From IMG/VR virus record IMGVR_UViG_3300033388_004729, positions 1 through 60,124 of that record: DNA of 60,124 nucleotides. One strand, 5' to 3'. The translations under genes and the position numbers were made by a program. The stretch is from a virus. Lineage: Duplodnaviria; Caudoviricetes. This document shows, piece after piece, positions 2,563-44,437 of the stretch. The notes under the pieces were generated by a model that saw only the letters and a list, made by a program, of their open reading frames with translations, did not search any database and was not told the DNA's origin. The number at the start of each line of letters is the position of its first letter. The stretch's first letter is position 1.

Positions 2563-3414
2563 TTAGTTTTCGTGAGACGCCAGAATGTTAGTAAGGTGTA
2601 ATTCCCAATATTCTCGGCGATGATTGGTTTTCATATGACAGCTTTGACAAAGAGGAACTAGTTTCCATGTTTCACCTTTACAACCTTGTGTTTTAGAATA
2701 ATCAATATGATGAATTGATAATTTCTTGCCATTCTCTTCAGCACCACACATAACACATTTCCTATTGAATTTATTACGAACACGTTCTTTTAATTCATTG
2801 TTGAATTTTATACAGTATGGTTCAAACGACAAACCACCTTTCCAAGCAGGATTGTTTTTACCAATATATTTACCTTTATGTGATTCAGACATCTTTCGTT
2901 TAGATTCTTCTGTGTGGTTGCGCCCAAACATTGGATTGTTTTCACCTTTGGTAGCATTAGATACTTTCGTTTTAGATTCGTCTGAAAGTGTTTTACCAGT
3001 ATTAGATTCTGATAATTTTCGTTTATGTTCCTCTGAAAACACTCTGCCTTTCATAGATTTGGACATGTTTAATTTGTGTTCATCTGAAAATTTTTTACCT
3101 TTGTTAGATTCAGATATTTTTTGTGACCTATTGTGTTTTTTTTCATCTGACATATTTTTCAGTGATGTGGATATCTTGTGTTTGTGTTCATCTGAATGTT
3201 TTATACCTTTTCGAACGTTTGACAGATTTAATTTATGTGTATCTGAAAACTTTTTACCGATGTTTTGATGACCATGGATATATTTTGGAATGCCATGTGA
3301 TGGAGTATGGTGACATTTTAGTATTGTTATTTCTCCACCGCAGCCACAACGACAAAAATGCTTGCCTTGCTCTTGTATTATCCAATCATCAACAGTCATA
3401 TAAATCAATATCAT
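2563..3414 (-). CDS. NUMOD3-repeat HNH homing endonuclease
   Basis: Repeated K(F/H)S(D/E)EHK..S motifs, GENNPMFG; C-terminal CVMC...IHHIDY...LCQSCH..N HNH; probable start at MTVDD. Confidence 0.85.
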   Translation of the reverse strand: MILIYMTVDDWIIQEQGKHFCRCGCGGEITILKCHHTPSHGIPKYIHGHQNIGKKFSDTHKLNLSNVRKGIKHSDEHKHKISTSLKNMSDEKKHNRSQKISESNKGKKFSDEHKLNMSKSMKGRVFSEEHKRKLSESNTGKTLSDESKTKVSNATKGENNPMFGRNHTEESKRKMSESHKGKYIGKNNPAWKGGLSFEPYCIKFNNELKERVRNKFNRKCVMCGAEENGKKLSIHHIDYSKTQGCKGETWKLVPLCQSCHMKTNHRREYWELHLTNILASHEN

Positions 3415-3417
3415 ATT

Positions 3418-3525
3418 TCACTGATATTTAATATGCATTCCAATACACATCAATATCCCCATGACAAATGCAAACAACAAAAATCCCCCACATACAAACC
3501 AGACAATTTTATCAGCTAAATCCAT
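3418..3525 (-). CDS. 35-aa hydrophobic peptide (copy 1)
   Basis: MDLADKIVWFVCGGFLLFAFVMGILMCIG; paralog of 4217..4315. Confidence 0.6.
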   Translation of the reverse strand: MDLADKIVWFVCGGFLLFAFVMGILMCIGMHIKYQ

Positions 3526-3672
3526 TAGATTACACCATATCATATTCTCTTATTGCATGAAGTACAATATCATGCCAATTCATATTATGGTTTTCTTTGA
3601 TCGTTTTCATTTCTGTAAATTCTTCATTGGTGAATTTTTCGTTTATACTTTGCATTATAACACCTTACTCAC

Positions 3673-3797: not shown

Positions 3798-4220
3798 TCA
3801 CCTTTTGGAATCCTGTTTAAAAATAACAATCATGCTGTCATGCATTCCACATTTGTTAGATACTCTTTCTCCAAATGTATTGATTCCCTCAAATTTCACT
3901 CTCCCTTTCAAGAATCGTATTTCCGCATTATGATATATTACCTCATGAAATATCTTTGTAGACGTGGAAACGGGCAATAGCATCACACAAAGCTTGCCTT
4001 TTTTACTTTCATCAAATGCTTTTCTGATAAATGCCTCTTTTAATTTCCTTGAATATGGTGGATTGATGAAATTCCTATCTTTCCATTCAATTTGAAGACC
4101 GTCGAAGTCCGAATGTAAAGGACACGGATCAAAATCAAAGTTAAATTCTCTATTTAGTTTATCATATAACCATTTTGGTGTTTTCCAATCATCCTTATGG
4201 TTTAGATTTCTATTTTTCAT
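3798..4220 (-). CDS. phage-type DNA N6-adenine methyltransferase
   Basis: DDWKTP, FDFDPC, catalytic FINPPY, VMLLPVST, IRFLKGRVKF; start at MKNRN overlapping the upstream TGA. Confidence 0.88.
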   Translation of the reverse strand: MKNRNLNHKDDWKTPKWLYDKLNREFNFDFDPCPLHSDFDGLQIEWKDRNFINPPYSRKLKEAFIRKAFDESKKGKLCVMLLPVSTSTKIFHEVIYHNAEIRFLKGRVKFEGINTFGERVSNKCGMHDSMIVIFKQDSKR

Positions 4221-4315
4221 GATGATACTCCAATACACATCAATATTCCGATACCAAATGCAAACAATAAATAACACGCGCAAATAAACCAGACAATTTT
4301 ATCACTTAAATCCAT
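4217..4315 (-). CDS. 32-aa hydrophobic peptide (copy 2)
   Basis: MDLSDKIVWFICACYLLFAFGIGILMCIG; ATGA overlap with the methylase. Confidence 0.6.
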   Translation of the reverse strand: MDLSDKIVWFICACYLLFAFGIGILMCIGVSS

Positions 4316-4955
4316 TATATCACACCTCCTGTTTTATGATTCGTCTTTGTGATCCCCTACACACATCCTGCCGTTATAGTTTCCACAATTTCTGCATTCT
4401 TTCATGATATTACACCCGCCTGAGATTATAATGTTTCCACATTGAACAGTTTTTTGACTTTAGGTAATCCACACATTTCATTTTAGTTTCGGTTGCTACC
4501 ACACATGTATCCCAATATTCACACTTTTCAGGATAATAATTCATGTTCATTCCACCTTCTCGATCCAGACGTTTACTCGGTCGCCCGGCTCGATGTCGTT
4601 GTATTTACAGTGTTTAAGGATTGCAAGTCGGTACCCTTTTTGTATTTTGCATTCACCGCAGTTTATTATTGGCATTATTATTTATCTCCATATAGTCTTT
4701 CTGCAAATTCAGTTACATATTTATAAGCATTTTCGCTTGGTGGTTTATCTATGAATTGCCTGTTTTTTATCAATGCATGTAGGAAATTAGATACCCATGC
4801 TAGTTCTAATGTATTTAGTTTATTAAGTTGTATCATGATTCATCAGCAACCCCGTCCTCTCTTGACATTCAAATGCTTCAGATGCCAAGCAGTATCCATT
4901 TTGATTATATTTACATTCCCGTACATCACATATTATTAGAGAATTCATGCTCTTA

Positions 4956-5744: not shown

Positions 5745-6095
5745 TCATGTTTCGTGCCCTTCTTTTATGATATCATATATTTTATGCACCTGTTCTGATG
5801 TTAAAGTCCTTGCGTCGATTGCGTTAATTGAATGTGCAAGTTTATTGAAATGTGCTTTTGCCACCATTTTGTCTTCAAGTTCTTGCGTCCACTTTTGAAG
5901 ATGTTTACTGGTCCACGAATCAATCTTGCAGCATCCATCTCGATACAGCGAACCACCAGTTGTTCTAACGTGTCCTTTTGGTGTGATTTTCTTCACTGTT
6001 GTTAGTTGTAATCCACCACTGAAGCCGGTAGATATATACACTTTATCGCCAGCACGAAGTTGTTTTATCCATTCATCCATCATTATTTTCACCAC
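5745..6095 (-). CDS. hypothetical SH3-like viral protein
   Basis: LRAGDKVYI...VKKITPKG pattern common in small phage proteins. Confidence 0.55.
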   Translation of the reverse strand: MVKIMMDEWIKQLRAGDKVYISTGFSGGLQLTTVKKITPKGHVRTTGGSLYRDGCCKIDSWTSKHLQKWTQELEDKMVAKAHFNKLAHSINAIDARTLTSEQVHKIYDIIKEGHET

Positions 6096-6567
6096 TATTT
6101 TTCAAGGCATATTATGCCTTGTTAATACTTAGTATGCCTTGTGTATATATATAGTTTGCTATTTGAACCAGGCACCGATATAAAGAAAGAACACGACCAG
6201 CAAATGTGCAGAAGATTCCGACAGTGGAATAAAGGTGATCTCTTAGTGAAGATTCCGACTGCGCAAAAATAAACTATTAGTGGTGAATAAAATGATCAGT
6301 GCGCAGTCAGTATTATATTCACCGCAGAACTATTTATATTTTTCTAATAATGCTGTGATTTGTATTGTGTCCATTGTATTACATCTTGTTCGCTCTCACA
6401 CGAACATTTCATCACCGGCACGCGCCACCCCACGCCCGGAGTGGCCTTATACTCGGATGATTTTATTAGGATATTTATGACTAAATAATATCATTCGTGT
6501 AGTGCCGAACAAACCGGAGTCGATTTTACTCTTCTTTTGATATTTAACAATGTTAAACCATATTAGA

Positions 6568-9012
6568 TTATTTGCTTCCTCGGTTTGCTTCATAGAGAAT
6601 ATTATCCAACCTGTCCAACAGCATAGAACCACGCGAGACGGTCTGGTTTTGCCCGATACATCGCTCTGATGAGATTAATTTATAGTTCGTAGATGTACAA
6701 ACAAAAAGCACCTCATCATATTGCTTTAGTAATCTCTGGTTTTTATCAATGAGTTGATCAACTGTGTGAATCCCGGGTCTTTCATATTCGATCGCTAACT
6801 TATGCCCGTTGATTTCTGCGACCACGTCAGCATCCTCATAGTGGTTTACTTGGACTGACGCCCCTCTATGGAGCAAGTATGCGGCGATTTGTAGGACAGT
6901 TCCGTAGTGGTCGACGGTCTGGTTCAATATTTTGCCATCTTTAACCTCAGACGTCTGTATCCAGATTCCAGTTGTGCCGCCCCGGAGTGCTCGCACAACA
7001 GCGAATCTATCCCGCCCGGGTGCTAGTAGTTTTGAATCACCGTCAATCCAATCTTCGATATATGCGTGATTCTCTTCAGCGAGTTTTGTATATCTTTTAT
7101 CGATGACCTTGAAACCAACATCAGCACCTGCTTTTATACCTGGTTTTGTAGTACCCAATATGACCTCCGATTCCAGGTCAGTAAGTGAGAATTTCACATC
7201 TGTTACGGTGTTGTTCACCTGGACTAATCCCTGCCCAATTCCACACCCACGAAGCGCAGCAATATCTTCATCTGACATATTAAAGAATGCTTTAATTGAA
7301 TCATATGAGTTCGGTTGAACATTCCCCATGATGATATTTACAAATGAGTTATTTTTAAGCAGTTCTTTAACGTCTTCGTCTTTCGCGTCAGATGGCTGTT
7401 GTGTTGTGAACCATGCATTGAGTCCGTAGCTTCGGCCCTGGGTATATATCTTCAGGATGAACTCTGCCAGTTTCTTGTCGTTTAAGAATACCCGGCCTTC
7501 GTCTATGATCACATTGGTTTTTTTGGTCAATTCAGTATTGAATCTCATCCCAACCATTCCGGTAACAAACACATTCATGGCGTCCTGGAGTGTCCCTGGT
7601 ACACTTGAAATATCAATGATTATAATATCTTTGTCAAAGTTTACATCCGTGGGTCGATTGATATATTCCCAAGATGTTTCTAATCTACTGGTTCGATTGA
7701 GCATTGCTTCAGCAGATGGATTTTTATTTTTCGAATCTTCTTTCCATACTTCTCGCAGGTCCAGCAAGACTGGCCACCTATCTCCTGCCAAATCTTTCCA
7801 GGTGTCGGGATCCTTTCGGATAATACCTTTCCTACGATATATCTCTATTAGGGATTCGTTGACATAGTTATCCATGTTGTCAGATGTGTTCAGGACCCGG
7901 AAGAAAGCTGTTACTAACTCCAAATGATTATTAAATATCTCAATATAATCATCATCTGTTTGATATACGGCATTGGTATCTAAGATTACCTGCAACGGAT
8001 TGATGTTATTATATCCTTTCTTACTTCCAATGTTAATGACCATTGCTTTATCTTTGTAATAATCTGCTACTGCAATATAGTTGGTTCTATTGTCAGGCTT
8101 TGGAGTAATATATACAAACCTATGACCTAATAGATCATAGCACCCCATCATCAATTTCATTAAAAGTACGGTCTTTCCTGATCCAGTTGATCCTACTATC
8201 AGATGATGTCCTGCGGCTAGCTTATCCAAATTGATTATGAATGGTGCATTATCCGCCTTACGCTCGCCATAGATTAAACCTATATCTGACAGCGCAACCA
8301 ACGGGTCTCGCAGAGGTACCAATGTTCCGCAGTCATGGCTCAACTGCTGAATCTCTGCTATATCAGTTGAAATAGGATATGGCTGCGCGGCCATGAAAGT
8401 ATCTAATATTGTGTAGTAAGGAACTTCAGCTCGGACTATATTAGAAGACATTACACCCTTTATTCTCGATATGCCATTCTGCAATCCTTCAAATGAATCT
8501 GACCACAATGTGATTATGTATTGACTGTCGAATAATCTTTGCTCGTTATTATAGAGCACATCGTATAATTTTACAAAGTCATGCGCCTCTTTGTCAAATC
8601 TCAATGAGTGTGCAGAGGCTCCGGATGACTTCTTGGTATCTCGGTCAATCTGCTCACTTGATATCTTATTTTTATACAGTGCATCATCAATTAGTTGCTG
8701 TGCAATTTCGTGAGGGATTGGTTCGCAACTATACGAAATACCTATTAGGCAATCACTGGTGGCCTCTAGTGCCATAATCTGATCAGTGAAGTCCGGTGAT
8801 AGATTACGGGGGAATCCCCTGCCTGTCTGTGACGGCGGCACACCCACAATCATACAGGTTGCATATATCTCACGATCTATGAGTATGTGGTCTAGGTGTT
8901 CTTCGATTAGTGTAGGTGTGATTTTCCGTACTTGCTCATCATAGTATCGCTGACTGTCTAATACTGCGCCCGCTGCTTCGTTTTTGTTTCTGAATTGTGA
9001 TAGTATGTTCAT
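6568..9012 (-). CDS. VirB4/DUF87-like (HerA-FtsK superfamily) ATPase with C-terminal nuclease-like domain
   Basis: 814 aa; Walker A GSTGSGKT, Walker B VIIDEG, GRSYG..WFTTQQP, IGQGLV; C-terminal DADVV..LAIEYE. Confidence 0.85.
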   Translation of the reverse strand: MNILSQFRNKNEAAGAVLDSQRYYDEQVRKITPTLIEEHLDHILIDREIYATCMIVGVPPSQTGRGFPRNLSPDFTDQIMALEATSDCLIGISYSCEPIPHEIAQQLIDDALYKNKISSEQIDRDTKKSSGASAHSLRFDKEAHDFVKLYDVLYNNEQRLFDSQYIITLWSDSFEGLQNGISRIKGVMSSNIVRAEVPYYTILDTFMAAQPYPISTDIAEIQQLSHDCGTLVPLRDPLVALSDIGLIYGERKADNAPFIINLDKLAAGHHLIVGSTGSGKTVLLMKLMMGCYDLLGHRFVYITPKPDNRTNYIAVADYYKDKAMVINIGSKKGYNNINPLQVILDTNAVYQTDDDYIEIFNNHLELVTAFFRVLNTSDNMDNYVNESLIEIYRRKGIIRKDPDTWKDLAGDRWPVLLDLREVWKEDSKNKNPSAEAMLNRTSRLETSWEYINRPTDVNFDKDIIIIDISSVPGTLQDAMNVFVTGMVGMRFNTELTKKTNVIIDEGRVFLNDKKLAEFILKIYTQGRSYGLNAWFTTQQPSDAKDEDVKELLKNNSFVNIIMGNVQPNSYDSIKAFFNMSDEDIAALRGCGIGQGLVQVNNTVTDVKFSLTDLESEVILGTTKPGIKAGADVGFKVIDKRYTKLAEENHAYIEDWIDGDSKLLAPGRDRFAVVRALRGGTTGIWIQTSEVKDGKILNQTVDHYGTVLQIAAYLLHRGASVQVNHYEDADVVAEINGHKLAIEYERPGIHTVDQLIDKNQRLLKQYDEVLFVCTSTNYKLISSERCIGQNQTVSRGSMLLDRLDNILYEANRGSK

Positions 9013-9212
9013 TTAAAATCACCACCATCATTAAAATATTTAATAAGAGAGTTCATATCTTCTAGCATCCCTTCAGCCACACCATACCACATTTCTTTTA
9101 TATGATCTGGTAACAATTCAAACCCATCTCCATAATATCTTTTGAAATGTGCTTTGGCTATTCTATCTATTGAATACTTCGTAATTGAAATTTGTTCTAT
9201 CATTTGATACAC
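9009..9212 (-). CDS. hypothetical protein
   Basis: 67 aa, overlaps both neighbours in the operon. Confidence 0.5.
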   Translation of the reverse strand: MYQMIEQISITKYSIDRIAKAHFKRYYGDGFELLPDHIKEMWYGVAEGMLEDMNSLIKYFNDGGDFK

Positions 9213-10012
9213 CTCCTCAATGCTCGCCCAATAACAGATTCTGTAATTAGCATCTCGTATCCTATCCCGCCAAGTTCAAATCCATCTTCTAAACTCGGGA
9301 TAAGATTCTCACGTTCTGCATCCGCTTCTTCAATCGTATTGAATCGACCTATGATTATTGAAGCGTAGATATACCGTTTCGTGGGAACCTCAGTATTAGA
9401 TACCAGCATTTGATACATTGAATTCAAGTGTTCGCGCTGTTCTGTGGTCTTTGATTCATCGTTCATAGCTTCAGCGACTTTGTTTTTGATTGTAGTATCC
9501 TGTGTGTATCGTTGAAACTCCACTACTTTGAGCACTTGACCATCATGTATTCTATCAATTATATTCTTAGTTACTAAGTGTATAAACGCATCCAGGTTAT
9601 CACCTGTTCGGTTGGGTACGAACAACATGTATATTACTCCGAACCGATTATTGGTGAATTCTATTAGCCCATTGGGGTGTGCTTTCTCAAGTGGGACAAG
9701 TCCCTTCAAGAATTGCAACGATACTGTATGCTTAGGGATGATATGCTCACCCTTCAATACTCTAATCCGATACTTTACTTCAAGTGTGGATCTTATGAGT
9801 ATGGCGGGTGTGCGCATTTTAGTATAGAATATTACCGCTGCGACTATACAGATTAGAATCATCAATGCTTTTAAGATTATTGATGAGAGTAATATGAATA
9901 GCATGAATGGGATAAACATAGCTACTAATCCGTAGATGCCAGCGGGAATTATCCAATTCCAAGGTACACCGTTCTGCTCTTCAGTTACTTTTCTTAATCT
10001 TAATGAAAACAT
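9200..10012 (-). CDS. membrane protein (2 TM plus soluble domain), VirB4 partner
   Basis: Two N-terminal hydrophobic helices; position upstream of the ATPase as for VirB3/PrgI-like genes. Confidence 0.6.
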   Translation of the reverse strand: MFSLRLRKVTEEQNGVPWNWIIPAGIYGLVAMFIPFMLFILLSSIILKALMILICIVAAVIFYTKMRTPAILIRSTLEVKYRIRVLKGEHIIPKHTVSLQFLKGLVPLEKAHPNGLIEFTNNRFGVIYMLFVPNRTGDNLDAFIHLVTKNIIDRIHDGQVLKVVEFQRYTQDTTIKNKVAEAMNDESKTTEQREHLNSMYQMLVSNTEVPTKRYIYASIIIGRFNTIEEADAERENLIPSLEDGFELGGIGYEMLITESVIGRALRRCIK

Positions 10013-10013
10013 A

Positions 10014-10874
10014 TTACATCACCAATTTTATTTTATTCTTTGCACTGCCTAATAATTTCATGATTGTAAATGGCCCCATGATAAATATTAAAGATACCAC
10101 TAATAATAATAATCCGAATACCATGAAACAGAAAAACTGCCATGACTGATTGTAGGGTGCGATGAATTGAATAACTCCAACGCCTACACATGTAACCGCT
10201 AGAATTACCGGCTGCATGAACACCATTACTATATAATAGATAAATAATCCGGTGCCTATCTTTCGAGTGTATGGGAGGGCAATTAAGATAATTATTACAA
10301 GACAGTATCCCATACTAATTCCTATGATCAATGACCTCCAGACAAACGACATGGATAATAATGCATAGATAAACCCCATGGCGACGTATAGTGTAACATT
10401 ATCCGGTGTGATTATTATGCTCGGTAATATCCCCGTCATTATCATAGAACAAATCACGTAGTTTAGCACTAATGCTAGCCACATTATAAACGGGATCATC
10501 GGCGCACATACTATTAATAGAAAAGCAGGACCAAAAAACTCTTTCATGGTTGATGTGTGTTTTACATCCATCCCCAAAAACTGTCTGCTTGTGCGCAGGC
10601 GGGACATCTGCACCCATGCGCCCCCAACAAATAGGAACATAATAAGAAATATAACATAGATTAATGCGCTTTCTTTTAGTGAGTTAAGGACTGTGGGGTC
10701 TTGCAGGGGGTTGTATGTGAACGTGGCAATGTCTACTAATAACTTCCCCTGATATGATGCATTGGCCACGCCCTGTGAGCTCATGTTGAATAAGTCATCA
10801 CCAACGCCTACAGCAAACAGTCCTATGCCTTTGTCCACACCCTCTGCTAGGGCGTCTACTGGATTTAATGCCAT
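10014..10874 (-). CDS. polytopic membrane protein, VirB6/TrbL-like
   Basis: About 6-7 hydrophobic helices; LIALPYTRKIG motif typical of VirB6-like channel proteins; operon context. Confidence 0.6.
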   Translation of the reverse strand: MALNPVDALAEGVDKGIGLFAVGVGDDLFNMSSQGVANASYQGKLLVDIATFTYNPLQDPTVLNSLKESALIYVIFLIMFLFVGGAWVQMSRLRTSRQFLGMDVKHTSTMKEFFGPAFLLIVCAPMIPFIMWLALVLNYVICSMIMTGILPSIIITPDNVTLYVAMGFIYALLSMSFVWRSLIIGISMGYCLVIIILIALPYTRKIGTGLFIYYIVMVFMQPVILAVTCVGVGVIQFIAPYNQSWQFFCFMVFGLLLLVVSLIFIMGPFTIMKLLGSAKNKIKLVM

Positions 10875-11831
10875 TTAGAACCTCCTAATCTGTACAATAG
10901 ATGCAAACACAAATAATCCTACCAAGCTTATGAACGGCCAGAACAGTGATGAGAATACGTCGCCTGGGTCGTTACATTCCAGTTCATACACGGTGATGTT
11001 ATCCACTGCATAAGACTCATACGGACTATTCAACGTAACTGTAAGGTTACTACTCGAAAAGTTCATTGTTGGTATAATTACAAACTCACCGAAGCGGGAT
11101 AGATTACCGTCCATCTCCCATATGTTCGATGAATTTATCAACATATATGGACAGTTCTTATCAGTGTATTCTTGTGTCGCTGTGCTCCGATGATGTATTA
11201 TCGACTCATTATTATATGTGTAGTTAATTGAGATTGCATCAAGAGGGACATTCTCAATCAATATGCTGGTCTTTGGTGAGATTGAATTATTATAAATTAC
11301 CACTTCAATAGACACATTAGTATTATCTAACGACTGTAATGTCTGGGGTACAATATCAGTATCGTAGAAAATGGCTTCCTCAGTATAATATGTCTTCTTA
11401 AGATGTTTGAATGGATACAGTTTCAATGTTACCTTATACCATTTTAGGTATATATCCATTGAAGCTGTGATTGTATTGCCATCTGAGGTCACTGTTATCT
11501 CATCTGTGAATTCCTTAACACCGGTATTCCAACCATCGGCAGATTCCCATTTATCCGATTGGACTATAACATAATCCAACGGGTCGTCCGGAATGTAATA
11601 CTCACCATCTATGCAAATCATATCATTATATCCTACAATATCAATCCAGGCGTGTATATGCTCGTAATTCTGCTGTAGTTTATCTGGCGCATACACCCCT
11701 GAATAATCTAGACCATGTGCAAAATCTAAATATTTTTTTTCAAGAATTTCACTAATTGTATCTCCAGATGCAGCAGGAACTAAAAATAGAATGATGCAGA
11801 TAAACGCCACTCTAACTGAAATAGATTGCAA
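10875..11831 (-). CDS. secreted/surface protein with C-terminal anchor
   Basis: N-terminal signal peptide (..PAASG), C-terminal TM followed by RRF. Confidence 0.65.
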   Translation of the reverse strand: MQSISVRVAFICIILFLVPAASGDTISEILEKKYLDFAHGLDYSGVYAPDKLQQNYEHIHAWIDIVGYNDMICIDGEYYIPDDPLDYVIVQSDKWESADGWNTGVKEFTDEITVTSDGNTITASMDIYLKWYKVTLKLYPFKHLKKTYYTEEAIFYDTDIVPQTLQSLDNTNVSIEVVIYNNSISPKTSILIENVPLDAISINYTYNNESIIHHRSTATQEYTDKNCPYMLINSSNIWEMDGNLSRFGEFVIIPTMNFSSSNLTVTLNSPYESYAVDNITVYELECNDPGDVFSSLFWPFISLVGLFVFASIVQIRRF

Positions 11832-12120
11832 ATAGCATTCCTAACATGAGCAGTAGCAATACTACTGTAATGATTCCGTAGAACATACCCATGATATGTT
11901 TGCTTCTTCCTGCGCTGTCCCGCTGGATGCTCGATACATTTGACCCGATGCCGTGCCCAAATTGACATATAATAGTCACTATCAAAAACCCTAGTGCTGC
12001 AATCCCCGTAATAAATGCAATCCATCCCTGTACTTCAGGACCAAGAGAATTAAAAACCACAATCGGGTTCCCTATCAATCCGTGTGTGTCACCTATATTT
12101 AATGCTGAATCGTTTGCCAT
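11812..12120 (-). CDS. small 2-TM protein, VirB2/pilin-like
   Basis: 102 aa, two hydrophobic helices with a short polar linker; first gene of the operon, GAGGTGA RBS. Confidence 0.55.
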   Translation of the reverse strand: MANDSALNIGDTHGLIGNPIVVFNSLGPEVQGWIAFITGIAALGFLIVTIICQFGHGIGSNVSSIQRDSAGRSKHIMGMFYGIITVVLLLLMLGMLFAIYFS

Positions 12121-12219
12121 TATTTCACCTCAAATATATTTATAACTATATAACATATTTAACTTATATAATATATATAACCTAAAAGTATATAAGTATA
12201 TAGGATATATACTGTATAT
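12121..12219. promoter_or_regulatory. divergent AT-rich promoter region
   Basis: Several TTATA/TATATAA boxes between the divergent operons. Confidence 0.55.
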
Positions 12220-12393
12220 ATGAGAATAACAAAATGTGTATCTATAAAATCAGAGCATCAAGCACATATAGAAAAACATCACTTGAATTTATCAGGAATT
12301 ATACAGGAAAAAATAGATGAACTTATCGAGGTGGCAAAACATGATAAAGTACTCATTAGCGATTGTAATGTTACTTATGGCGACGGGGATTAG
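12220..12393 (+). CDS. small ribbon-helix-helix-like regulator
   Basis: MRITKCVSIKSEHQAHIEKHHLNLSGIIQEKIDELI (beta strand then NLS..I helix); below the ORF-track length cut-off. Confidence 0.5.
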   Translation: MRITKCVSIKSEHQAHIEKHHLNLSGIIQEKIDELIEVAKHDKVLISDCNVTYGDGD

Positions 12394-12634
12394 CGGCTGT
12401 ATTACCTCAGCAGATAGTATCGAAGGTAGGTACCAGTCCGAAGTAAACCCCCATGATTATTTAGAACTCCGAAATGACGGATCGTATGTGGTCGTACAGG
12501 ACAATGCATTTGGCGGACTCTACACAGTTGCAGACAATACTATAATACTTACACATACCTTCGGTTCTTTTGTATTGGTGTTTGATGGTGCCGATCTCAT
12601 TGACCTTGACGGCGAGCGATGGGTAAAGGTATAA
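12341..12634 (+). CDS. lipoprotein (lipocalin-like beta protein)
   Basis: MIKYSLAIVMLLMATGISGC lipobox; IEGRY...LELRNDGSY. Confidence 0.65.
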   Translation: MIKYSLAIVMLLMATGISGCITSADSIEGRYQSEVNPHDYLELRNDGSYVVVQDNAFGGLYTVADNTIILTHTFGSFVLVFDGADLIDLDGERWVKV

Positions 12635-12703
12635 GTCTTACTTTTTACGAATAAATAATATTATATACTATTAAGTGGTATTGTATATTCGGTGAATTGA
12701 ATG
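12515..12703 (+). repeat. 189-bp direct repeat, copy 1
   Basis: Nearly identical to 13505..13693; spans the lipoprotein 3' end, a TATA promoter, RBS and ATG. Confidence 0.92.
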
Positions 12704-13089: not shown

Positions 13090-13434
13090 ATGAGGGAAAT
13101 CAAATTCAGAGCATACGACCCAACAAATGAACGAATGGTATATGATGGTTTTTACATCAATGAAGATGGTTCCATTGAGATATTTATGGATATATTCTAT
13201 GAAAATTATATGAAAACCGTAGACTGGATTCTTATGGAGTACACCGGTTTAACAGATCGAAATAGTGTGGACATCTATGAAGGAGACATAGTAAAAACCA
13301 AACGCGGACTTGAAATAGTATTCATGCGTTTTGGCTGTTGGTTTGTAGAACACCAGAAAGAACTTGGATATTTTAAGAAATGTGATATTGAAGTTGTTGG
13401 CAACATCCACGAAGCACAAGAGGAAGACAAATGA
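13090..13434 (+). CDS. YopX family protein
   Basis: MREIKFRAYD...LMEYTGLTDRNSVDIYEGDIV...EVVGNIHE. Confidence 0.9.
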   Translation: MREIKFRAYDPTNERMVYDGFYINEDGSIEIFMDIFYENYMKTVDWILMEYTGLTDRNSVDIYEGDIVKTKRGLEIVFMRFGCWFVEHQKELGYFKKCDIEVVGNIHEAQEEDK

Positions 13435-13535
13435 CACACGAATCAATCGCAGATGAATCCGAACTTGCAGAACGAATAAGTAACCTGATACACGTCCAGC
13501 AGGTGGACTCTACACAGTCGCAGACAATACTGTAA
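13431..13535 (+). pseudogene. chimeric ORF: AbrB-gene 5' end fused out of frame to the lipoprotein 3' end
   Basis: MTHESIADESELAERISNLIHVQQ matches the N-terminus of 13867..14076, then the sequence joins repeat copy 2. Confidence 0.7.
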
Positions 13536-13693
13536 TACTTACACATACCTTCGGTTCTTTTGTATTGGTGTTTGATGGTGCCGATCTCATTGACCTTGAC
13601 GGCGAGCGATGGGTTAAAGTATAAGTCTTACTTTTTACGAATAAATAATATTATATACTATTAAGTGGTATTGTATATTTGGTGAATTGAATG
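13505..13693 (+). repeat. 189-bp direct repeat, copy 2
   Basis: Nearly identical to 12515..12703, offset 990 bp. Confidence 0.92.
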
Positions 13694-13866
13694 AAAGCAA
13701 ATCGATTAATGAAGATATTACTCATCGGAATAATACTAAATGTTGCATACTATCTATATTGCGTATGCACCGGACACATATCTGGATATGTATTTTTTGT
13801 ACTGTTGATTATATGTCTGGTGATGGTACTCATCCTTGAGTTAGTATACCGCCTGGAGGAAAGCAC

Positions 13867-14076
13867 ATGACCAATGAATCAATCGCAGATGCTGCAGAAT
13901 TAGTCGAACGGATCAGTAACCTGATACACGTCCAGCAGCCGCTCTTCGAAGCGGAAGTCAATGATAAAGGCCAAATCGTTATTGTGAAGTGGGTAAGAGA
14001 GCGATATAAGCTCAACAGGGGTGACAAAGTTGCTATATATCGAATGGAGAAGGTGTGGAACAATGGCATTCATTAA
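13867..14076 (+). CDS. AbrB/MazE/SpoVT family DNA-binding protein
   Basis: FEAEVNDKGQIVIVKWVRERYKLNRGDKV. Confidence 0.8.
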   Translation: MTNESIADAAELVERISNLIHVQQPLFEAEVNDKGQIVIVKWVRERYKLNRGDKVAIYRMEKVWNNGIH

Positions 14077-15869: not shown

Positions 15870-16114
15870 ATACGATGATACGAGTGCCCGACAAAGACAT
15901 TTTAGAAGCAGAAGAAATGTTAATCACAAATCTCAGTATAGCATATTGTCAAGACCCCGGTGGTTTCGAGAATGATATACAGTGTGAAGATAAATATAAT
16001 AGTGGAATTCTGCGAGATATAATTCACAAAACCTTAAAAAAATGGGGACAATCAGAAGAATATATCCGGCGAAGGAGTAGGTATCACGACGTTGATGAAT
16101 ATTATAAGGAGTGA
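15866..16114 (+). CDS. hypothetical protein
   Basis: 82 aa, GTGA overlaps. Confidence 0.5.
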   Translation: MNTMIRVPDKDILEAEEMLITNLSIAYCQDPGGFENDIQCEDKYNSGILRDIIHKTLKKWGQSEEYIRRRSRYHDVDEYYKE

Positions 16115-17406
16115 ACAACATGAATATATTAATTACAAGTGCATCACAAAAAGTCATTTTGATAGAATCATTCAAAAAAGCAATTCGTGAATTAAAAATT
16201 GAATGTGGTGTGATTGCTGCTGATATATCTCGAAATTCATCCGCTTTGTATTTTGCTGATGATTATGTCATTGTACCAAGGAGTGATGATGATGAATTCA
16301 TAAATTTTATATTGTTATTATGCAAAGAAAAAAAGATTAAACTAATCATCCCCACACGAGACGAAGAGCTATTAACATTTTCAATAAACAAAAAACGGTT
16401 TAATAACATTGGCACAGAAATAATGGTATGTAATCCCGATACAATACGAACCTGTCAAAACAAAAAAATGTTTGTACAGTTTTGTATTGATAATAATATT
16501 CCAGTTCCAGAAACATATAATATTGCTGATGTTGTTAATTTTCCATTGTTTAGCAAACCAGTTACCGGAAGCGGTGGTAAAAACATTTTAAAAATTAATA
16601 ACATTCATGAATTAGAGGCAATAACAAAACAGCATTTAGATATAATAATTCAAGAGTATATTGAGTGGGATGAGTACACGGTAGATTTGTATGCAGATTT
16701 TAATAATAATATTAAATCTGTTGTCCCGCGCCGGCGTGTTGTTGTTAATGGTGGTGAATCAGTCATAACTACAACACACAATGACCTGAAAATTATTAAT
16801 GCAAGTATCGATCTTGCTAAAAAATTAAACCTTATTGGTCATAATACAATTCAATGTTTTTACAATGGTGATGATATAAAATTTATAGAGGTAAACCCTC
16901 GTTTTGGTGGAGCAGCACATTGCTCATTTGAAGCAGGAGCATTTACACCAAAATATATAATACAATTAATTATGGGACTGCCAATATCAGATAACATCGT
17001 GAAATTTAGAGACAATCTTACGATGTTAAGATATTCTAATGATTATTTCTTAAATCGGGAACCTAAAAATATAGATGAAGGAGAAGAAGTTGTTTGTATA
17101 GATTTTGATGGTGTAATACATAGATATTCAAAAGGATGGTATGACGGCAGTATATATGATATTCCGAACACTGGAACAGAACAAGCTTTAAGAAATATAA
17201 TATCAAATGGATATAAAATAATAATCTGCACTGCCAGAACCAATTTGTTAGGCGTTCGGAACTGGATGAATAAACATTTTCCTGGTATCTCTGTTGAAAT
17301 AACAAATATTAAACCAGCCGCTAAAATATATATTGATGACAAGGGATTCAAATTTCTGTCGTGGAGTAAAACTGATATAAAGTCGACAGCGCATGAGGTA
17401 GATTGA
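16111..17406 (+). CDS. ATP-grasp ligase (carbamoyl-phosphate-synthase-like) fused to HAD-superfamily phosphatase
   Basis: NILITSA, LIIPTRD, KPVTGSGG, IIQEYI, FIEVNPRFGG; C-terminal IDFDGVI...ICTAR...KP.A..YIDD. Confidence 0.85.
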   Translation: MNNMNILITSASQKVILIESFKKAIRELKIECGVIAADISRNSSALYFADDYVIVPRSDDDEFINFILLLCKEKKIKLIIPTRDEELLTFSINKKRFNNIGTEIMVCNPDTIRTCQNKKMFVQFCIDNNIPVPETYNIADVVNFPLFSKPVTGSGGKNILKINNIHELEAITKQHLDIIIQEYIEWDEYTVDLYADFNNNIKSVVPRRRVVVNGGESVITTTHNDLKIINASIDLAKKLNLIGHNTIQCFYNGDDIKFIEVNPRFGGAAHCSFEAGAFTPKYIIQLIMGLPISDNIVKFRDNLTMLRYSNDYFLNREPKNIDEGEEVVCIDFDGVIHRYSKGWYDGSIYDIPNTGTEQALRNIISNGYKIIICTARTNLLGVRNWMNKHFPGISVEITNIKPAAKIYIDDKGFKFLSWSKTDIKSTAHEVD

Positions 17407-27747: not shown

Positions 27748-28698
27748 TTAAATACCAGAATCATATAATGCAGCGTATGGTTCTTTGACAACAGTCACCT
27801 GATCAACCCAGAACTGCATGACTGTGTCGTGTGTGTCATCTTCAACATATGAATTATAGTTGAATCCGATATTCGGCACAGTCTTAGAATTTCCATCGCC
27901 TGTCTGATATGTGATGTTTGCAGTTGAGTACTTTGGATTGTTGTTATAGAACAATGTTCCGGCAGGATTTCTCTTGTCCATTCCAAGTGCATAACCCTCT
28001 GAAATACCACTGTCTAGCCCGTGGATTGTTGCGCCGACTACTGGTATATCTATATCCATAGATGACATAGTAGGTACACCGTACAGATTCTTCTGCTTGT
28101 CACCGTCAATATCCATTGCAGTAAGATATTGTAACAGTTCGAAGTAGTTATCACTGTGCACATATACATCAGTTAGCCCATATGGATAACCTTCACGATG
28201 CATTTGTGCCGCCAATTTCAATAAATCATCCACAGGAGTTGCTGTTGCGCCATCCCATGTAGTTGTTGGCGTCCATGATGGTGTAGTTGCTCCACCAGTC
28301 AAAGAAGTTCCAGTGATTGTATTCACATGCTGTGCAAGCTGATACGCGACCCGGGTATATGCCCGGTTAATCTGATCAATCCCCTCAGTGAACTGAATGG
28401 CGTCTTCATCGATCTTAATCGCGAAACCTTCCTGGTTCAATAATGCAGATTCAATCGAGATTGTGGTAATGTCCACAAATGGGAACCTTGCACTTGGTGT
28501 GTGTATCACCGGGGTCTTTTTCTTTGTATCTGACGATGCACTAACAGATTCTTGTTTGTATCGTACAGCCCGGGCATCCGTTTTCACTTTTGGAAGCAAA
28601 TCTATAAATGATAGATAGGGCTCCATGATCTTGAAAACTGTTGGCACTACAAATTCTTTCTGTAAGAATTTCTCATTTGGTAATGATACTTGTGTCAT
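27748..28698 (-). CDS. major capsid protein (HK97 fold, inferred)
   Basis: 316 aa after the protease/scaffold and decoration genes; W....ATP.DDL motif, C-terminal VVKEPYAAL. Confidence 0.75.
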   Translation of the reverse strand: MTQVSLPNEKFLQKEFVVPTVFKIMEPYLSFIDLLPKVKTDARAVRYKQESVSASSDTKKKTPVIHTPSARFPFVDITTISIESALLNQEGFAIKIDEDAIQFTEGIDQINRAYTRVAYQLAQHVNTITGTSLTGGATTPSWTPTTTWDGATATPVDDLLKLAAQMHREGYPYGLTDVYVHSDNYFELLQYLTAMDIDGDKQKNLYGVPTMSSMDIDIPVVGATIHGLDSGISEGYALGMDKRNPAGTLFYNNNPKYSTANITYQTGDGNSKTVPNIGFNYNSYVEDDTHDTVMQFWVDQVTVVKEPYAALYDSGI

Positions 28699-33819: not shown

Positions 33820-35867
33820 ATTTCCACCAGCGACAGATTATTTAGTATAAACGCCTTTGTCATACTATGGGATGAACTTAAAACTTTCATATTTTTATCA
33901 ATTGCAACACCGGGTTCTGTAATCGTTAATCTGATTACATCGCCTGCAATTATATCATTACCGTGAATAGTTATTTCAGCCGTTTTTTTATGAGTTTTTA
34001 CAATCATCTGATTTGCTTTTAGTTCTGCTAATTCGGATGATTCTATTTTCTCATCTCTAAAAACTTCAACATACATTCCATATTGGTCTTGTGATGCTAT
34101 ATCATTGTTCATGACTGCGACCCGGGCGGGAGACCTGGTATTAAAATCTAAATCGTCACTGCCATCCACACCCACTTTAACACCGTCTGCGGTGGTACCC
34201 TCTAATACCATCCAATATGTATCCCCGGGGGTCACGGTGACTGGATTTGTAAATTTTAATTCTGTTTTACCCTCGTCAGTGATATTATCAAGTAATACAA
34301 TTGCTGCGGATTCTGGCAAAATCACACCCGATGGTGAGCCCGTTGAATCTTCTTGAATCGATATTGTAATGTTTGATGAACTACCCGAAACAAATTCAGT
34401 ATGCACGAAAACACTAGATAAATATTCTTCAGTCGGTACAAATGATTCATTTTTCGGTGTTGAATCTGTGATGGTTGTTGTGGTCGTCTCAGTAGCACCA
34501 GTTTGATCAATACTCTGCTCATATCCCCCTATTACTATTGCCCGATTAACTATTTTCAAAGTGTCAGATATAGTGGGTGACCCATCTAGGTCATCATCGG
34601 TGATTGTATCGGTGATTACATATGCCGCCGGATCATAGAAATGTAATCTCTTGTCTGTGTCAATGTGCCACTCATACCCAACCTCATTTGCGAGATCATT
34701 TATTGCAGATGATACGGATACCCAGTTGAATGTCGCTGAATCAATTGTAAATGCTGTAGTTTCAACATTATCATAATTTGAACTTACATCCATCAATTCT
34801 CTATATTTCTGACCCGTTGTGTAATCTGTTTTTTCTAATATCCCTGTTGCAATTGCAGAGACTTCAGTATCATAGAATCGCGCAGGGAAAAACATATGAT
34901 TTAATTTATAGCCCCAGTCTTCGCCAGACACTTCCATTATGGGTAATACCTGCGAACCCTCGAGTGTTTTGTTTACATTCGTAATAATACCAACAAGTTT
35001 AACAGTGTCTACACCACCAACCCCCATATAAATTGCAATTTCACAACCCTGCTCAATATACGAATATGCATCTGATTCATTCGTAAGAACAAATGAGAAT
35101 CTATCGGCGGCCTGCGAACCAGATAAATCAAGATTGAGCCGTTGAATATTATCAGTTATTGCATATCCTTCATCATCGAGATCAGTTATCAGTACCCGGG
35201 ACGTTGGGATGTGCTCATGTGTGCCACCCGGATGATTATAAAGAAATGTTCGTTCACCTTCATTTAGACCGCGGGTATAAAGCCGCATTTCGTCCATTGT
35301 ACCGTCGAAATATTCAGTGCCCCCGTGTGATCCCAACAGCAACGGATGTGAATTAGCAGGACCTAACCCAAGTGCATGAGTTGAATCTAATTCATTATTA
35401 ATATATATTTTAGTTTCATTTCCAATTACTGTGATAAGTATGTGTGTCCATTTGCCCACATCTATTACATCCGTGGAAGTTACCCCAGTAGTTCCATTAT
35501 AAAATCCTATCTTCTCATCATTATATACATAGAAATTATAATTTACATTTGCCGAACCTGTGCCCTGGCGCTTTGCTAATATTCCGCCGATGTGCGAAGA
35601 ATCTAATTTGATCCATCCGCTGAATGTAATATCGGTTGTTATGTTGAGACTACTATTTATGCCACATGTGACATATTCAGAATTGCTACTATCGAAAATC
35701 AGTGCACCACCGGATATTCCATTTGTAGTCCATGTTGGGGGTCCTGTAAGATCCCCAGTATTCCCTTTACCAGATAGGTCGGCAGATGTAGACCCTGCGC
35801 CCTCATTAAACGACCAATATCCTACCAGCCCATTATCAAGATTAATGCTCATAAGTCCTTCAACCAC
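33816..35867 (-). CDS. LamG (concanavalin A-like) domain fused to tail hub/baseplate protein
   Basis: GLVGYWSFNEG...GKWTH...FDGTMDEMRLY; then D.FSF...GEDW...AINDLA...YEWHID...LHF. Confidence 0.8.
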   Translation of the reverse strand: MVEGLMSINLDNGLVGYWSFNEGAGSTSADLSGKGNTGDLTGPPTWTTNGISGGALIFDSSNSEYVTCGINSSLNITTDITFSGWIKLDSSHIGGILAKRQGTGSANVNYNFYVYNDEKIGFYNGTTGVTSTDVIDVGKWTHILITVIGNETKIYINNELDSTHALGLGPANSHPLLLGSHGGTEYFDGTMDEMRLYTRGLNEGERTFLYNHPGGTHEHIPTSRVLITDLDDEGYAITDNIQRLNLDLSGSQAADRFSFVLTNESDAYSYIEQGCEIAIYMGVGGVDTVKLVGIITNVNKTLEGSQVLPIMEVSGEDWGYKLNHMFFPARFYDTEVSAIATGILEKTDYTTGQKYRELMDVSSNYDNVETTAFTIDSATFNWVSVSSAINDLANEVGYEWHIDTDKRLHFYDPAAYVITDTITDDDLDGSPTISDTLKIVNRAIVIGGYEQSIDQTGATETTTTTITDSTPKNESFVPTEEYLSSVFVHTEFVSGSSSNITISIQEDSTGSPSGVILPESAAIVLLDNITDEGKTELKFTNPVTVTPGDTYWMVLEGTTADGVKVGVDGSDDLDFNTRSPARVAVMNNDIASQDQYGMYVEVFRDEKIESSELAELKANQMIVKTHKKTAEITIHGNDIIAGDVIRLTITEPGVAIDKNMKVLSSSHSMTKAFILNNLSLVEI

Positions 35868-36874
35868 CCTATTTTAGCATTAATATGATCCATCAGTGGC
35901 TTTGTAATCCCACAGGACGACGCTTTCTTAATCTCAGTATTGCCTATAGCAATTGAATCAGCCGCACAACCACCTGCGCAGAAGTCAACATAATCACATT
36001 CCTGGCATTCATCATCAAGATTATATACAAATGATAGGAACTTCGCCCGGGCATCACCATACCATATTTCATCAAATGTGTTTTTGTTTACGTTTCCTAA
36101 CACATAATCATCATTAGCATTATTCAAAACAAAACATTCACAGGGATATACATCACCGAATGTATCGATACAAACTACATGTTCATTACACGTAGGATAA
36201 CATTTGAGATGTGTTTTCCCTAATAATATAAACTGGATCATAATATTGAACGGATCTATCCTAATATACGATTTATTATCATACCACTCATCAAATAGTT
36301 TTATTGCAGCGATCGCAGATTTCTCTTGAAAATTATTAGGAGTCTGGAAGTTTAGCTTAATCCCTTGATTCATGTGATGAAAAAAAGGATAGAATTCGTC
36401 GATATGATCACAGGCATATTCAGACAATACAGCAATACACCCGAAGGGTATCTTGCGTCGATTCATCTCAATCATTGATTTTATGATTGTATCGAATGCA
36501 CCCGAACCCATGTTTTTATCATTAATAAATATGTCACCATCTAATGACGTAGAGACACCATAATCATATTTCTGTATAAAATCATACCATTCTGGCGTTG
36601 CTAATGTCATATTTGAGCAAATTACCCGGTCAATGTTACATCCAATTTCAGTAAATCGCCGCTCTGCATCCTCATAAAACTCTAACGGCATCATCATAGG
36701 CTCTGCAGCATGCCATTCGATGTGACCATTCTCACAATTCAACTCGTGTGCCTTTGCACAGAAATCAATTGTATTATATAGTGTAGTTCGATTCATCCTA
36801 TTATGCCCTTTTCGAGCATTGCAGTATGTACAAGACAGATTACATTCATCAGTCGGAAGGATTGAGGTTATCAT
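35849..36874 (-). CDS. radical SAM/SPASM domain protein (peptide/protein maturase type)
   Basis: CNLSCTYC, AAEP, STSLDG, C...C...GDVYPC, CQEC.....C.GGC. Confidence 0.92.
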   Translation of the reverse strand: MITSILPTDECNLSCTYCNARKGHNRMNRTTLYNTIDFCAKAHELNCENGHIEWHAAEPMMMPLEFYEDAERRFTEIGCNIDRVICSNMTLATPEWYDFIQKYDYGVSTSLDGDIFINDKNMGSGAFDTIIKSMIEMNRRKIPFGCIAVLSEYACDHIDEFYPFFHHMNQGIKLNFQTPNNFQEKSAIAAIKLFDEWYDNKSYIRIDPFNIMIQFILLGKTHLKCYPTCNEHVVCIDTFGDVYPCECFVLNNANDDYVLGNVNKNTFDEIWYGDARAKFLSFVYNLDDECQECDYVDFCAGGCAADSIAIGNTEIKKASSCGITKPLMDHINAKIGWLKDL

Positions 36875-44341: not shown

Positions 44342-44437
44342 CTAATTTAATATAAACGCAAAACTAATAGCTGTTGCGATTAATATCGCAGACCAACATC
44401 CACTAAAACAAGGATTGAAACTTCATAATACCCATAT

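Follow-up and report, generated by a model that had tools for sequence, protein, structure and literature searches.

A compact gene module centred on a predicted VirB4-type ATPase has been stably kept for a long time in the genomes of a group of Methanosarcinales tailed viruses, and in the virus record IMGVR_UViG_3300033388_004729 (Duplodnaviria; Caudoviricetes) it occupies positions 6568-12120. The window, by which we mean the whole stretch of DNA analysed, is this one IMG/VR record, linear, 60,124 bp long and with an estimated completeness of 65%. Six minus-strand open reading frames (ORFs) encoding proteins of 102, 318, 286, 270, 67 and 814 amino acids (aa) are present exactly where a preliminary description of the DNA had placed them, so tightly coupled that neighbours overlap by 20, 13 or 4 nt or stand 0-1 nt apart. 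Because 79 homologues of the 814-aa ATPase were found and the gene order is kept in other records, the six genes are taken as real beyond chance. The preliminary description had likened the layout to a minimal type IV secretion system (T4SS) or to the archaeal Ced/Ted systems, and the composition agrees with this, in that a VirB4-type ATPase stands within a conserved membrane module. We give about an even chance to the reading that the operon's products form a minimal envelope machine of the T4SS or conjugation type with VirB4 at its centre, which would likely serve contact-dependent DNA transfer.

The predicted motor proteins

The VirB4-family ATPase is, to our knowledge, the single ubiquitous protein of T4SSs, and the 814-aa product of the operon is, as judged from its sequence, an ATPase of this type and not a HerA helicase. 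It matched the Pfam families AAA_10 (E 2.2e-15), DUF87 and FtsK_SpoIIIE, and its best match among hidden Markov models (HMMs) was to a VirB4 of Bacillota T4SSs (Bacillus Trs/Tra), the NCBIfam model 'VirB4-like conjugal transfer ATPase, CD1110 family' (E 5.6e-37, residues 70-603), at 127 bits against a model cut-off of 325 bits. Four other VirB4/TraC/CedB models matched besides this one, among them VirB4_plasma (E 1.5e-32), another VirB4 model (E 1.5e-12) and CedB (E 6.7e-11), and because all VirB4 model scores lie under the curated equivalog cut-offs we regard the protein as a distant member of the family. The NCBIfam HerA_antiphage model reached E 0.029. A profile of 27 ATPase family members (A1) matched the VirB4 C-terminal domain in the PDB (4AG5) over the whole chain at E 4.1e-34, and the next matches, to DptH (7ES4, E 4e-7), IcmO, HerA (4D2I, E 1e-5) and FtsK (E 5e-5), came at 4e-7 or worse. 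The initial VirB4-type assignment is thus borne out; a non-transfer helicase of the HerA/FtsK kind was rejected on these values, and the grouping with HerA helicases that would have spoken against the assignment was not seen. Walker A residues G274, T276, G279 and K280 and Walker B residues D504 and E505 are invariant in the 27 sequences, and no other called ORF of the window has a classical Walker A motif. Searches of PLSDB returned distant matches only (21-25% identity), to Bacillus TrsE/TraE and a haloarchaeal 'transfer complex protein', and 50,697 GenBank phage records yielded one distant, unannotated match.

The 270-aa protein was correctly described at first as having two transmembrane (TM) helices, which form a hairpin, but its identity was missed: fusions and a fold match to TrwK indicate that it is the split-off front of VirB4, comprising a membrane hairpin and the first soluble part. 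Its homologue lies directly upstream of the ATPase gene in all 12 IMG/VR loci with upstream sequence, and seven Methanosarcinales genomes encode a fused ATPase of ~1075 aa whose opening ~270 residues belong to the 270-aa family by hmmsearch (E 1e-32 to 3e-30); the N-terminal placement follows from the domain order in these fused forms. In an AlphaFold2 (AF2) model with a predicted local distance difference test (pLDDT) value of 74, helices 18-40 and 45-65 make up an N-terminal hairpin that precedes a VirB4-like soluble domain, a VirB3-like feature, and the ten best Foldseek matches in the PDB were all to the R388 T4SS inner-membrane complex or to TrwK/VirB4 (E 5e-4 to 6e-3, probability 0.99-1.0). 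Pfam, NCBIfam and hhalign gave no sequence match to VirB3 or TrsD, the hhalign comparison with Bacillota TrsD reaching a probability of 1.1% with reference alignments of 3-4 sequences and low sensitivity. One of the membrane proteins therefore shows T4SS similarity by fold, where a lack of it in all of them had been named as an outcome that would count against the proposal. In the split motor so predicted, the 814-aa protein contributes what is left of the N-terminal region, together with an ATPase domain whose Walker motifs are intact and a nuclease-fold domain. At 8889-11983 of a Halorientalis plasmid (L072), the gene of the 'transfer complex protein', which matches VirB4 distantly, likewise overlaps a 337-aa gene in front of it; behind it comes a primase-like gene of 1454 aa. 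By analogy, the split-VirB4 layout may be general in archaea.

The motor part of the ATPase had been recognised in the preliminary description, and the domain fused to its C-terminus had been overlooked. An AF2 model of residues 605-814 (pLDDT 89.7) shows the last ~200 residues as a separate domain, and its top Foldseek matches were all nucleases of the restriction-endonuclease fold (NucS 2VLD, Bax1, YaeQ, Hjc 1HH1/4TKD, XisH and Hef), at modest E-values of 3.5e-3 to 1e-2 and probabilities of 0.85-1.0 (1.0 for Hjc). Residues H702, H724, D729, E742 and K757 are invariant in the 27 ATPase sequences. When a profile of the domain was run against 1.84 billion cluster representatives it matched 234 clusters, in which the domain sits at or near the C-terminus of full-length proteins of ~570-1260 aa (mostly ~800-1100 aa), the short matches probably being gene fragments; this count and the C-terminal position in long proteins point to a fusion specific to the family. 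Among the 21 PLSDB matches listed (of 22) none passes query residue 639, so that the nuclease-like domain is left unaligned, including by the VirB4s of Bacillota plasmids. On this modelled fold, the ATPase carries a family-specific PD-(D/E)xK nuclease-like domain with a conserved D-E-K set.

Viral and non-viral carriers of the module

An alignment-based scan of IMG/VR for the ATPase returned 15 loci, and a scan with the single protein returned nothing. In the 12 informative loci the 270-aa homologue comes after genes for a polytopic protein of 5-7 TM helices, a secreted protein with an anchor and a small TM protein, so that related viruses do keep the module, and in the same gene order. A homologue of the window's terminase was present in eight of the ten long IMG/VR records that carry the ATPase; it also lies beside the module in a 13-kb contig (L004) and 5 kb from it in contig G065:C1, and at least 11 records link the module to a large terminase. 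These include G003 (48.4 kb) and G009 (63 kb), complete genomes with 114-nt terminal direct repeats. G003 has the capsid (2e-49), scaffold (7e-34), terminase and fibre genes in common with the window, and in G009 a terminase was recognised at E 7.5e-89, a portal at 5e-37 and a major head protein at 1e-10. The window itself contains the set expected of Caudoviricetes, of large terminase, HK97-type capsid and tail genes, and a virion gene set had been reported initially; a portal was not recognised among its proteins and was recognised in its relative G009.

That the association is an artefact, either an assembly chimera or a separate element lying beside a provirus, is conceivable for a linear metagenomic contig of 65% completeness, but this explanation is largely refuted and we hold it to be highly improbable. 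The module is joined to virion genes in independent records of other sampling origin too, two of them with terminal repeats, and G003 and G009 carry homologues of window genes from either side of the module. No att-like direct repeats bracket 6.1-12.7 kb of the window, and there is no compositional break, the G+C content of the module (0.39-0.41) lying inside the window range of 0.32-0.44. No tRNA gene was found in the window and no integrase among its scanned ORFs; two viruses (G004, G005) have an integrase, and the two with terminal repeats have none. The suspicion of a chimera or of an adjacent element with its own att sites, raised at the outset, is thus not supported, and the module belongs to head-tail virus genomes.

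The ATPase is also carried by 26 of 284 genomes of the order that holds the Methanosarcinaceae metagenome-assembled genome of L017, the closest cellular copy being 76% identical (L020), and a narrower ATPase profile (A2) run against genome contigs gave at least two loci. The status of these carriers as non-viral rests on two inspected contexts, G111 and G073, in which the module makes up about half of a ~14-kb integrated element between host genes. There it comprises genes for a pilin-like protein, a surface protein, a 7-TM protein and a fused VirB3/4-nuclease together with a divergent small ORF and a lipoprotein gene, and the remainder of the element encodes a primase-polymerase (Prim-Pol), a winged helix-turn-helix protein and a tyrosine integrase. 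The flanking genes are for a molybdopterin oxidoreductase and cytochrome c552 on one side and for an ABC (ATP-binding cassette) transporter on the other. Terminase_6C was found in one of ten ATPase-holding cellular genomes, a weak negative for the rest because the model also misses the true terminase of G009. A further IMG/VR viral record (L007, genome G010) is 21,095 bp long with 99-nt terminal repeats and a full module; no homologue of any window virion gene was found in it, and its ATPase branches from within a terminase-linked clade. The record may represent a plasmid that arose from such viruses or one from which they arose.

In an unrooted tree of 30 ATPase sequences, built by a quick method and having several long branches, the ten terminase-linked copies are scattered among the others, and well-supported branches force at least three label changes. 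This interleaving with non-viral carriers, together with identities between viral copies that fall to 28%, indicates long residence and repeated exchange and contradicts the recent capture that had been offered as one explanation. The comparison argues for an old, exchanged module that is also the core of ~14-kb integrative elements in Methanosarcinales.

The hosts are Methanosarcinales, including methane producers, and from the nitrate-reductase and cytochrome genes that flank the G111 element we infer that methane oxidisers are among them as well. The window also has a solitary direct repeat of the CRISPR type at 44385-44421 on the plus strand (Rfam CRISPR-DR7, 45.5 bits), with no second copy nearby. 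This 37-mer recurs with 0-3 mismatches in seven of the 284 genomes of the order, all seven among the rows listed next to G011, and in at least three (G018, G023 and G027) it is arranged in arrays. It could be a host marker, or else a decoy or anti-CRISPR element.

Membrane and surface components and the proposed function

Topologies of the module proteins were taken from a hydropathy scan and, for the 270-aa protein, from the AF2 model. The VirB6 and VirB2 labels of the preliminary description were right as to topology for the 286-aa protein (polytopic) and the 102-aa protein (two TM helices, pilin-sized), but kinship with either family did not emerge from the profile comparisons given below. 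Homologues of the 286-aa protein are conserved in position in 11 IMG/VR loci. All ten of its best family-bearing matches in the ESM Atlas belong to the TrbL clan (score 0.92, 199/256 features), and its structure rows there include TrbL_3, CtnDOT_TraJ and CD1112 VirB6-like clusters. A homologue search with the family gave 41 matches, none with a recorded Pfam domain, and a TrbL_3 search over the 284 genomes was uninformative, as its control was positive in 0 of 14 genomes. The 102-aa protein has TM segments at 34-52 and 83-101; the proteins encoded at its position in 11 loci begin with a signal peptide and continue with two hydrophobic helices joined by a polar loop, which is a pilin-like architecture, and its Atlas leads scored below 0.9, with T4SS_pilin on 13-45% of the members of two clusters. 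The two proteins are candidates for VirB6-like and VirB2-like components, respectively, solely on their topology and on leads from language models.

The description of the 318-aa product as an anchored surface protein agrees with its signal-like N-terminal segment and C-terminal TM anchor. Homologues occur in six IMG/VR loci and in G111, G073 and G272, and the longer family members have Beta_helix/NosD domains (7 of 14) or Disaggregatase-related domains (2 of 14; E 1.6e-25). A profile of the family matched alginate epimerases and a glucanase in the PDB. We read these longer homologues, by analogy with the wall hydrolases of Bacillota, as a putative part that degrades envelope glycans.

From these parts the following mechanism can be proposed. 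The machine would assemble in the membrane of an infected or lysogenic cell, where the 6-TM protein would form a VirB6-like channel and the small two-helix protein a pilus or an adaptor in the membrane. Relaxases of the MOB_C type possess a restriction-endonuclease fold, and the fused nuclease may cut or nick the DNA of the element in the place of a relaxase. A VirB4 hexamer would then drive this DNA through the channel into a touching cell, whose envelope the anchored surface protein would contact and, in relatives, digest; the lipoprotein would be an accessory and the small divergent ORF regulatory. The result would be a second, virion-free route of spread for the virus. A transfer apparatus is the natural reading because the module makes up about half of a ~14-kb element with an integrase and Prim-Pol, and export of the element's own DNA is favoured because a minimal integrative element has the module as its chief cargo, the best VirB4 matches are conjugative and a nuclease sits on the motor, at its cytoplasmic side.

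Several observations weigh against this proposal. The VirD4/TraG coupling protein is needed for conjugative DNA transfer in bacteria, and PF02534 found no match in the window at E <= 1, with a control that was positive in 9 of 14 genomes; in G003, G009, G004, G010 and G001 it gave only a sub-cut-off match of 13.9 bits inside the VirB4 gene. A Pfam scan of the 70 window ORFs, made without a dedicated MOB profile search, found no relaxase family, so that the reported absence of a recognisable VirD4 or relaxase from the window stands. For the 286-aa family, Pfam TrbL matched 0 of 12 members, the PDB profile search found nothing, and hhalign against a small reference alignment of four Bacillota TrbL proteins gave a probability of 0.1%. 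The 102-aa family had no pilin match in the PDB profile search and an hhalign probability of 0.8% against the Bacillota pilin (references of 3-4 sequences), and the window's own 102-aa protein is without the signal peptide of its relatives, just as its 318-aa copy is without beta-helix and disaggregatase-related domains. The record is ~65% complete. The ATPase is also matched by a PHROG labelled 'terminase large subunit' (E 8.3e-13, best stretch ~100 residues), and its core is matched by PADLOC models, namely mad8 (E 6.4e-20), DndH (E 2.7e-11) and HerA models.

These PADLOC matches and the DptH structure bring in the idea of defence or superinfection exclusion, in which a membrane-anchored ATPase-nuclease would cut incoming foreign DNA, from rival viruses or conjugative elements, at the envelope as a competitive weapon, much as mobile elements carry many defence systems. 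Such a role would suit a DNA-pumping ATPase to which a nuclease-fold domain with conserved residues of catalytic type is fused, and a module found in both viruses and integrated elements. The VirB4 matches, however, are much stronger (127 versus 70 bits) and cover N- and C-terminal regions, and the other eight proteins tested match no PADLOC model. Exclusion alone leaves the pilin-like, channel-like 6-TM and envelope-degrading surface proteins unexplained, and the minimal elements of G111 and G073, whose chief cargo the module is, would otherwise lack any means of transfer. We consider this explanation unlikely. A known PADLOC defence system was rejected separately, as the ATPase core alone matches and the component set is absent.

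A different doubt concerns the direction of transport. Ced (Sulfolobales) and Ted (Thermoproteales) consist of a minimal VirB4-like ATPase, a 6-7-TM protein and one or more small 2-TM proteins and, like the virus module, have neither VirD4 nor relaxase, as far as the accessible part of the source describes them (PMC9905601). Ced has the same parts list and imports DNA (PMC9905601, in part), so that transfer by the module could run either way, a further point against export. The operon might accordingly take up DNA from neighbours or manipulate the host, with the nuclease processing incoming DNA that could serve recombination, nucleotide supply or the acquisition of related elements, and the CedB model does match the ATPase. 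That match, at 41.5 bits, is far from the 700-bit cut-off, and no CedA, CedA1 or CedA2 match to the membrane proteins was found at E <= 1. Orthology to Ced/Ted was rejected on the CedB score (NF041017), the only other match being CedD on the ATPase at E 0.015. The accessible text presents Ced and Ted as chromosomal, cellular DNA importers, and mentions no nuclease fused to CedB or TedB (PMC9905601), whereas the present module has a nuclease-like domain on its ATPase and resides on viruses and a 14-kb integrative element, carriers that would gain no obvious selfish benefit from taking up foreign DNA. Its best HMM matches are moreover the conjugative VirB4s of plasmids and integrative conjugative elements (ICEs). 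Import is therefore rather unlikely, and we rank it behind a defensive role.

T4SSs in general can secrete proteins, and the module could also form virus-specific surface filaments or adhesins that aid virion spread through host aggregation or disaggregation, or a viral protein secretion system. The disaggregatase-related and beta-helix domains of the surface-protein family, and a beta-helix in the tail-fibre-like protein of the window, speak for such a role; the occurrence of the same module in elements without virion genes, and a fused nuclease that points to DNA as the substrate, speak against it, and we judge it the least probable of the three functional alternatives. We return, then, to a DNA-transfer machine. 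The wider proposal built on it, that a lineage-spanning group of archaeal tailed viruses doubles as conjugative elements, which would spread as virions and also as naked DNA between touching cells, by a relaxase-free, VirD4-free T4SS whose VirB4 motor has a nuclease of its own and which is swapped to and fro with minimal integrative plasmids, is put forward tentatively, as a possibility with less than an even chance.

Neighbouring features and related transfer systems

Coordinates of the module, its flanks and the virion genes are collected in Table 1.

Table 1. Positions in the window of the module genes, their predicted domains, flanking features and virion or replication genes
Feature	Position	Strand	Assignment
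102-aa ORF	12120-11812	-	2 TM helices, pilin-sized
318-aa ORF	11831-10875	-	secreted, C-terminally anchored surface protein
286-aa ORF	10874-10014	-	6 TM, polytopic; candidate VirB6/TrbL-like channel
270-aa ORF	10012-9200	-	predicted split N-terminal part of VirB4: VirB3-like TM hairpin and soluble domain
67-aa ORF	9212-9009	-	soluble, outside the conserved module
814-aa ORF	9012-6568	-	predicted VirB4-type ATPase with C-terminal nuclease-like domain, soluble
VirB4 C-terminal motor domain	7153..8286	-	~residues 243-620, stretch matched to 4AG5
Walker A GSTGSGKT	8170-8193	-	within the motor domain
PD-(D/E)xK (restriction-endonuclease-fold) domain	6571..6930	-	predicted; ~residues 695-814 of the ATPase
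116-aa ORF	5745..6095	-	downstream of the ATPase, possibly module-associated
Divergent intergenic region	12121..12219		AT-rich, repeated TATATA elements
57-aa divergent ORF	12220-12393	+	possible ribbon-helix-helix regulator
105-aa lipoprotein	12317..12634	+	predicted; lipobox-like ISGC motif in the translation
Capsid	27748-28698		Pfam Phage_capsid_4 E 1.4e-5, below cut-off; PHROG major head protein E 2.9e-13
Tape measure	36871-39411		PhageMin_Tail
Tail tube	39941-40732		tail tube model, score below cut-off
Mu-F-like protein	42678-43439
Large terminase	49203-50516		Terminase_6N/6C matches
MCM gene	54489-56477		archaeal type

Two divergent genes adjoin the operon. The 105-aa lipoprotein gene, which had been missed in the preliminary account of the module content, is a module member because genes homologous to it are found next to or within the module in G111 (E 1.2e-11), G073 (E 4e-12) and G001 (E 1e-6). 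A small divergent regulator had been noted; the 57-aa ORF is there, with a small ORF in its position in G111 and G073, and its identity as a regulator leans on weak ribbon-helix-helix-type matches to CcdA (Pfam, E 0.15) and the ORF56 copy-control protein (NCBIfam, E 0.12). The region between the two transcription directions may be a promoter or operator. A 192-nt direct repeat with 97% identity is present at 12512-12703, starting in the 3' end of the lipoprotein gene, and at 13502-13693, and further repeats of 83 nt and 19 nt lie at 13420-13938. By contrast with the lipoprotein gene, the 67-aa ORF is not a module member: library scans gave no family match, its sole homologue (in G009) sits elsewhere in that genome, and other loci have different small ORFs in varied places.

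Downstream of the ATPase gene, the 116-aa ORF had no family match in PADLOC or Pfam, and the complete genome G009 has a homologue of it (E 2e-47) just after the ATPase gene. The 470-nt non-coding stretch at 6096-6567 contains two 22-nt direct repeats (6211-6232 and 6248-6269) and, on the minus strand at 6330-6470, a G+C-rich fold of -38.2 kcal/mol (z -3.4; 0 of 200 shuffles as good) that matched nothing in Rfam and could be an origin, a terminator or a small RNA. Neither this stretch nor 12121-12219 showed nucleotide similarity in any compared locus.

Elsewhere the window holds two auxiliary genes that are unusual in a virus, one for a radical SAM/SPASM enzyme at 35849-36874 (-), between the tape-measure gene and a lectin-domain tail gene, and one for a PylC-like ATP-grasp enzyme at 16111-17406 (+). 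An enzyme of the CCA-adding/poly(A) polymerase family with an HD domain (PolyA_pol E 4e-32) is encoded at 46780-48078 (-), in a window with no tRNA gene. A pair of 98-nt direct repeats, 84% identical, at 3439-3536 and 4229-4326 flanks a Dam-type methyltransferase gene, the downstream copy overlapping the start of that gene, and an HNH/NUMOD3 homing-endonuclease-like gene adjoins the methyltransferase gene (2563-3414; 3798-4283).

Among known systems, the conjugative Trs/Tra T4SS of Bacillus, which we take to be of the MPF-FATA type of monoderm bacteria, is close in layout. Bacillus and Peribacillus plasmids have the same local order of a small pilin gene, a small ORF, a ~220-aa TrsD-type gene and VirB4, and their operons also hold a TrbL-family gene and a cell-wall hydrolase, which parallels the envelope-degrading homologues of the surface protein. 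The Bacillota operons, however, carry a VirD4-like coupling protein, and a MOBQ relaxase was typed in two of the four plasmids inspected, whereas neither was found in the virus module; their TrbL, TrsD and pilin counterparts showed no hhalign similarity to the module proteins with references of 3-4 sequences.

Archaeal conjugative plasmids and ICEs (Sulfolobus, thaumarchaeal) are described, in the part of the source available, as having VirB4/TrbE, VirB6 and VirB3 homologues and no recognisable relaxase (PMC6563490). According to the same text most of these elements encode VirD4/TraG in addition to VirB4, as a signature pair, and have a median size of 64 kb (PMC6563490), whereas the present module is without VirD4, its non-viral carriers are ~14 kb and many of its other carriers are tailed viruses. 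The core of the pT26-2 family of Thermococcales and Methanococcales, as far as its report is accessible, combines membrane proteins with an ATPase that is structurally VirB4-like by prediction; it has been read as a putative secretion or transfer system and is accompanied by an integrase and by MCM or other replication genes (PMC6972569). That family, compared here by description only, belongs to another host order and is presented as plasmids rather than as elements that form virions (PMC6972569, in part). Bacterial phage-plasmids join a tailed-phage gene set to plasmid functions and move as phages, and the accessible portions of two accounts report no conserved conjugation apparatus for them, in contrast to the T4SS-like module conserved here (PMC12282955, PMC7969092). 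In the literature, covered as open full text (supplements may list such genes), we found no description of a VirB4-type module in archaeal tailed viruses. The only paper joining VirB4, head-tailed viruses and archaea was a study of thaumarchaeal integrated mobile genetic elements, the available part of which treats ICEs and proviruses as separate classes (PMC6563490).

Viruses and conjugative elements are usually treated as two separate vehicles of horizontal transfer. If the proposal holds, a conserved transfer-type machine in complete tailed-virus genomes would blur that line in archaea, and it may give these viruses a route of spread inside cell aggregates, where virions may diffuse poorly. 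The module would also offer a compact model of archaeal DNA transfer without relaxase or coupling protein, made of about seven genes and including a fusion of motor and nuclease, and gene flow in Methanosarcinales bears on the methane cycle.

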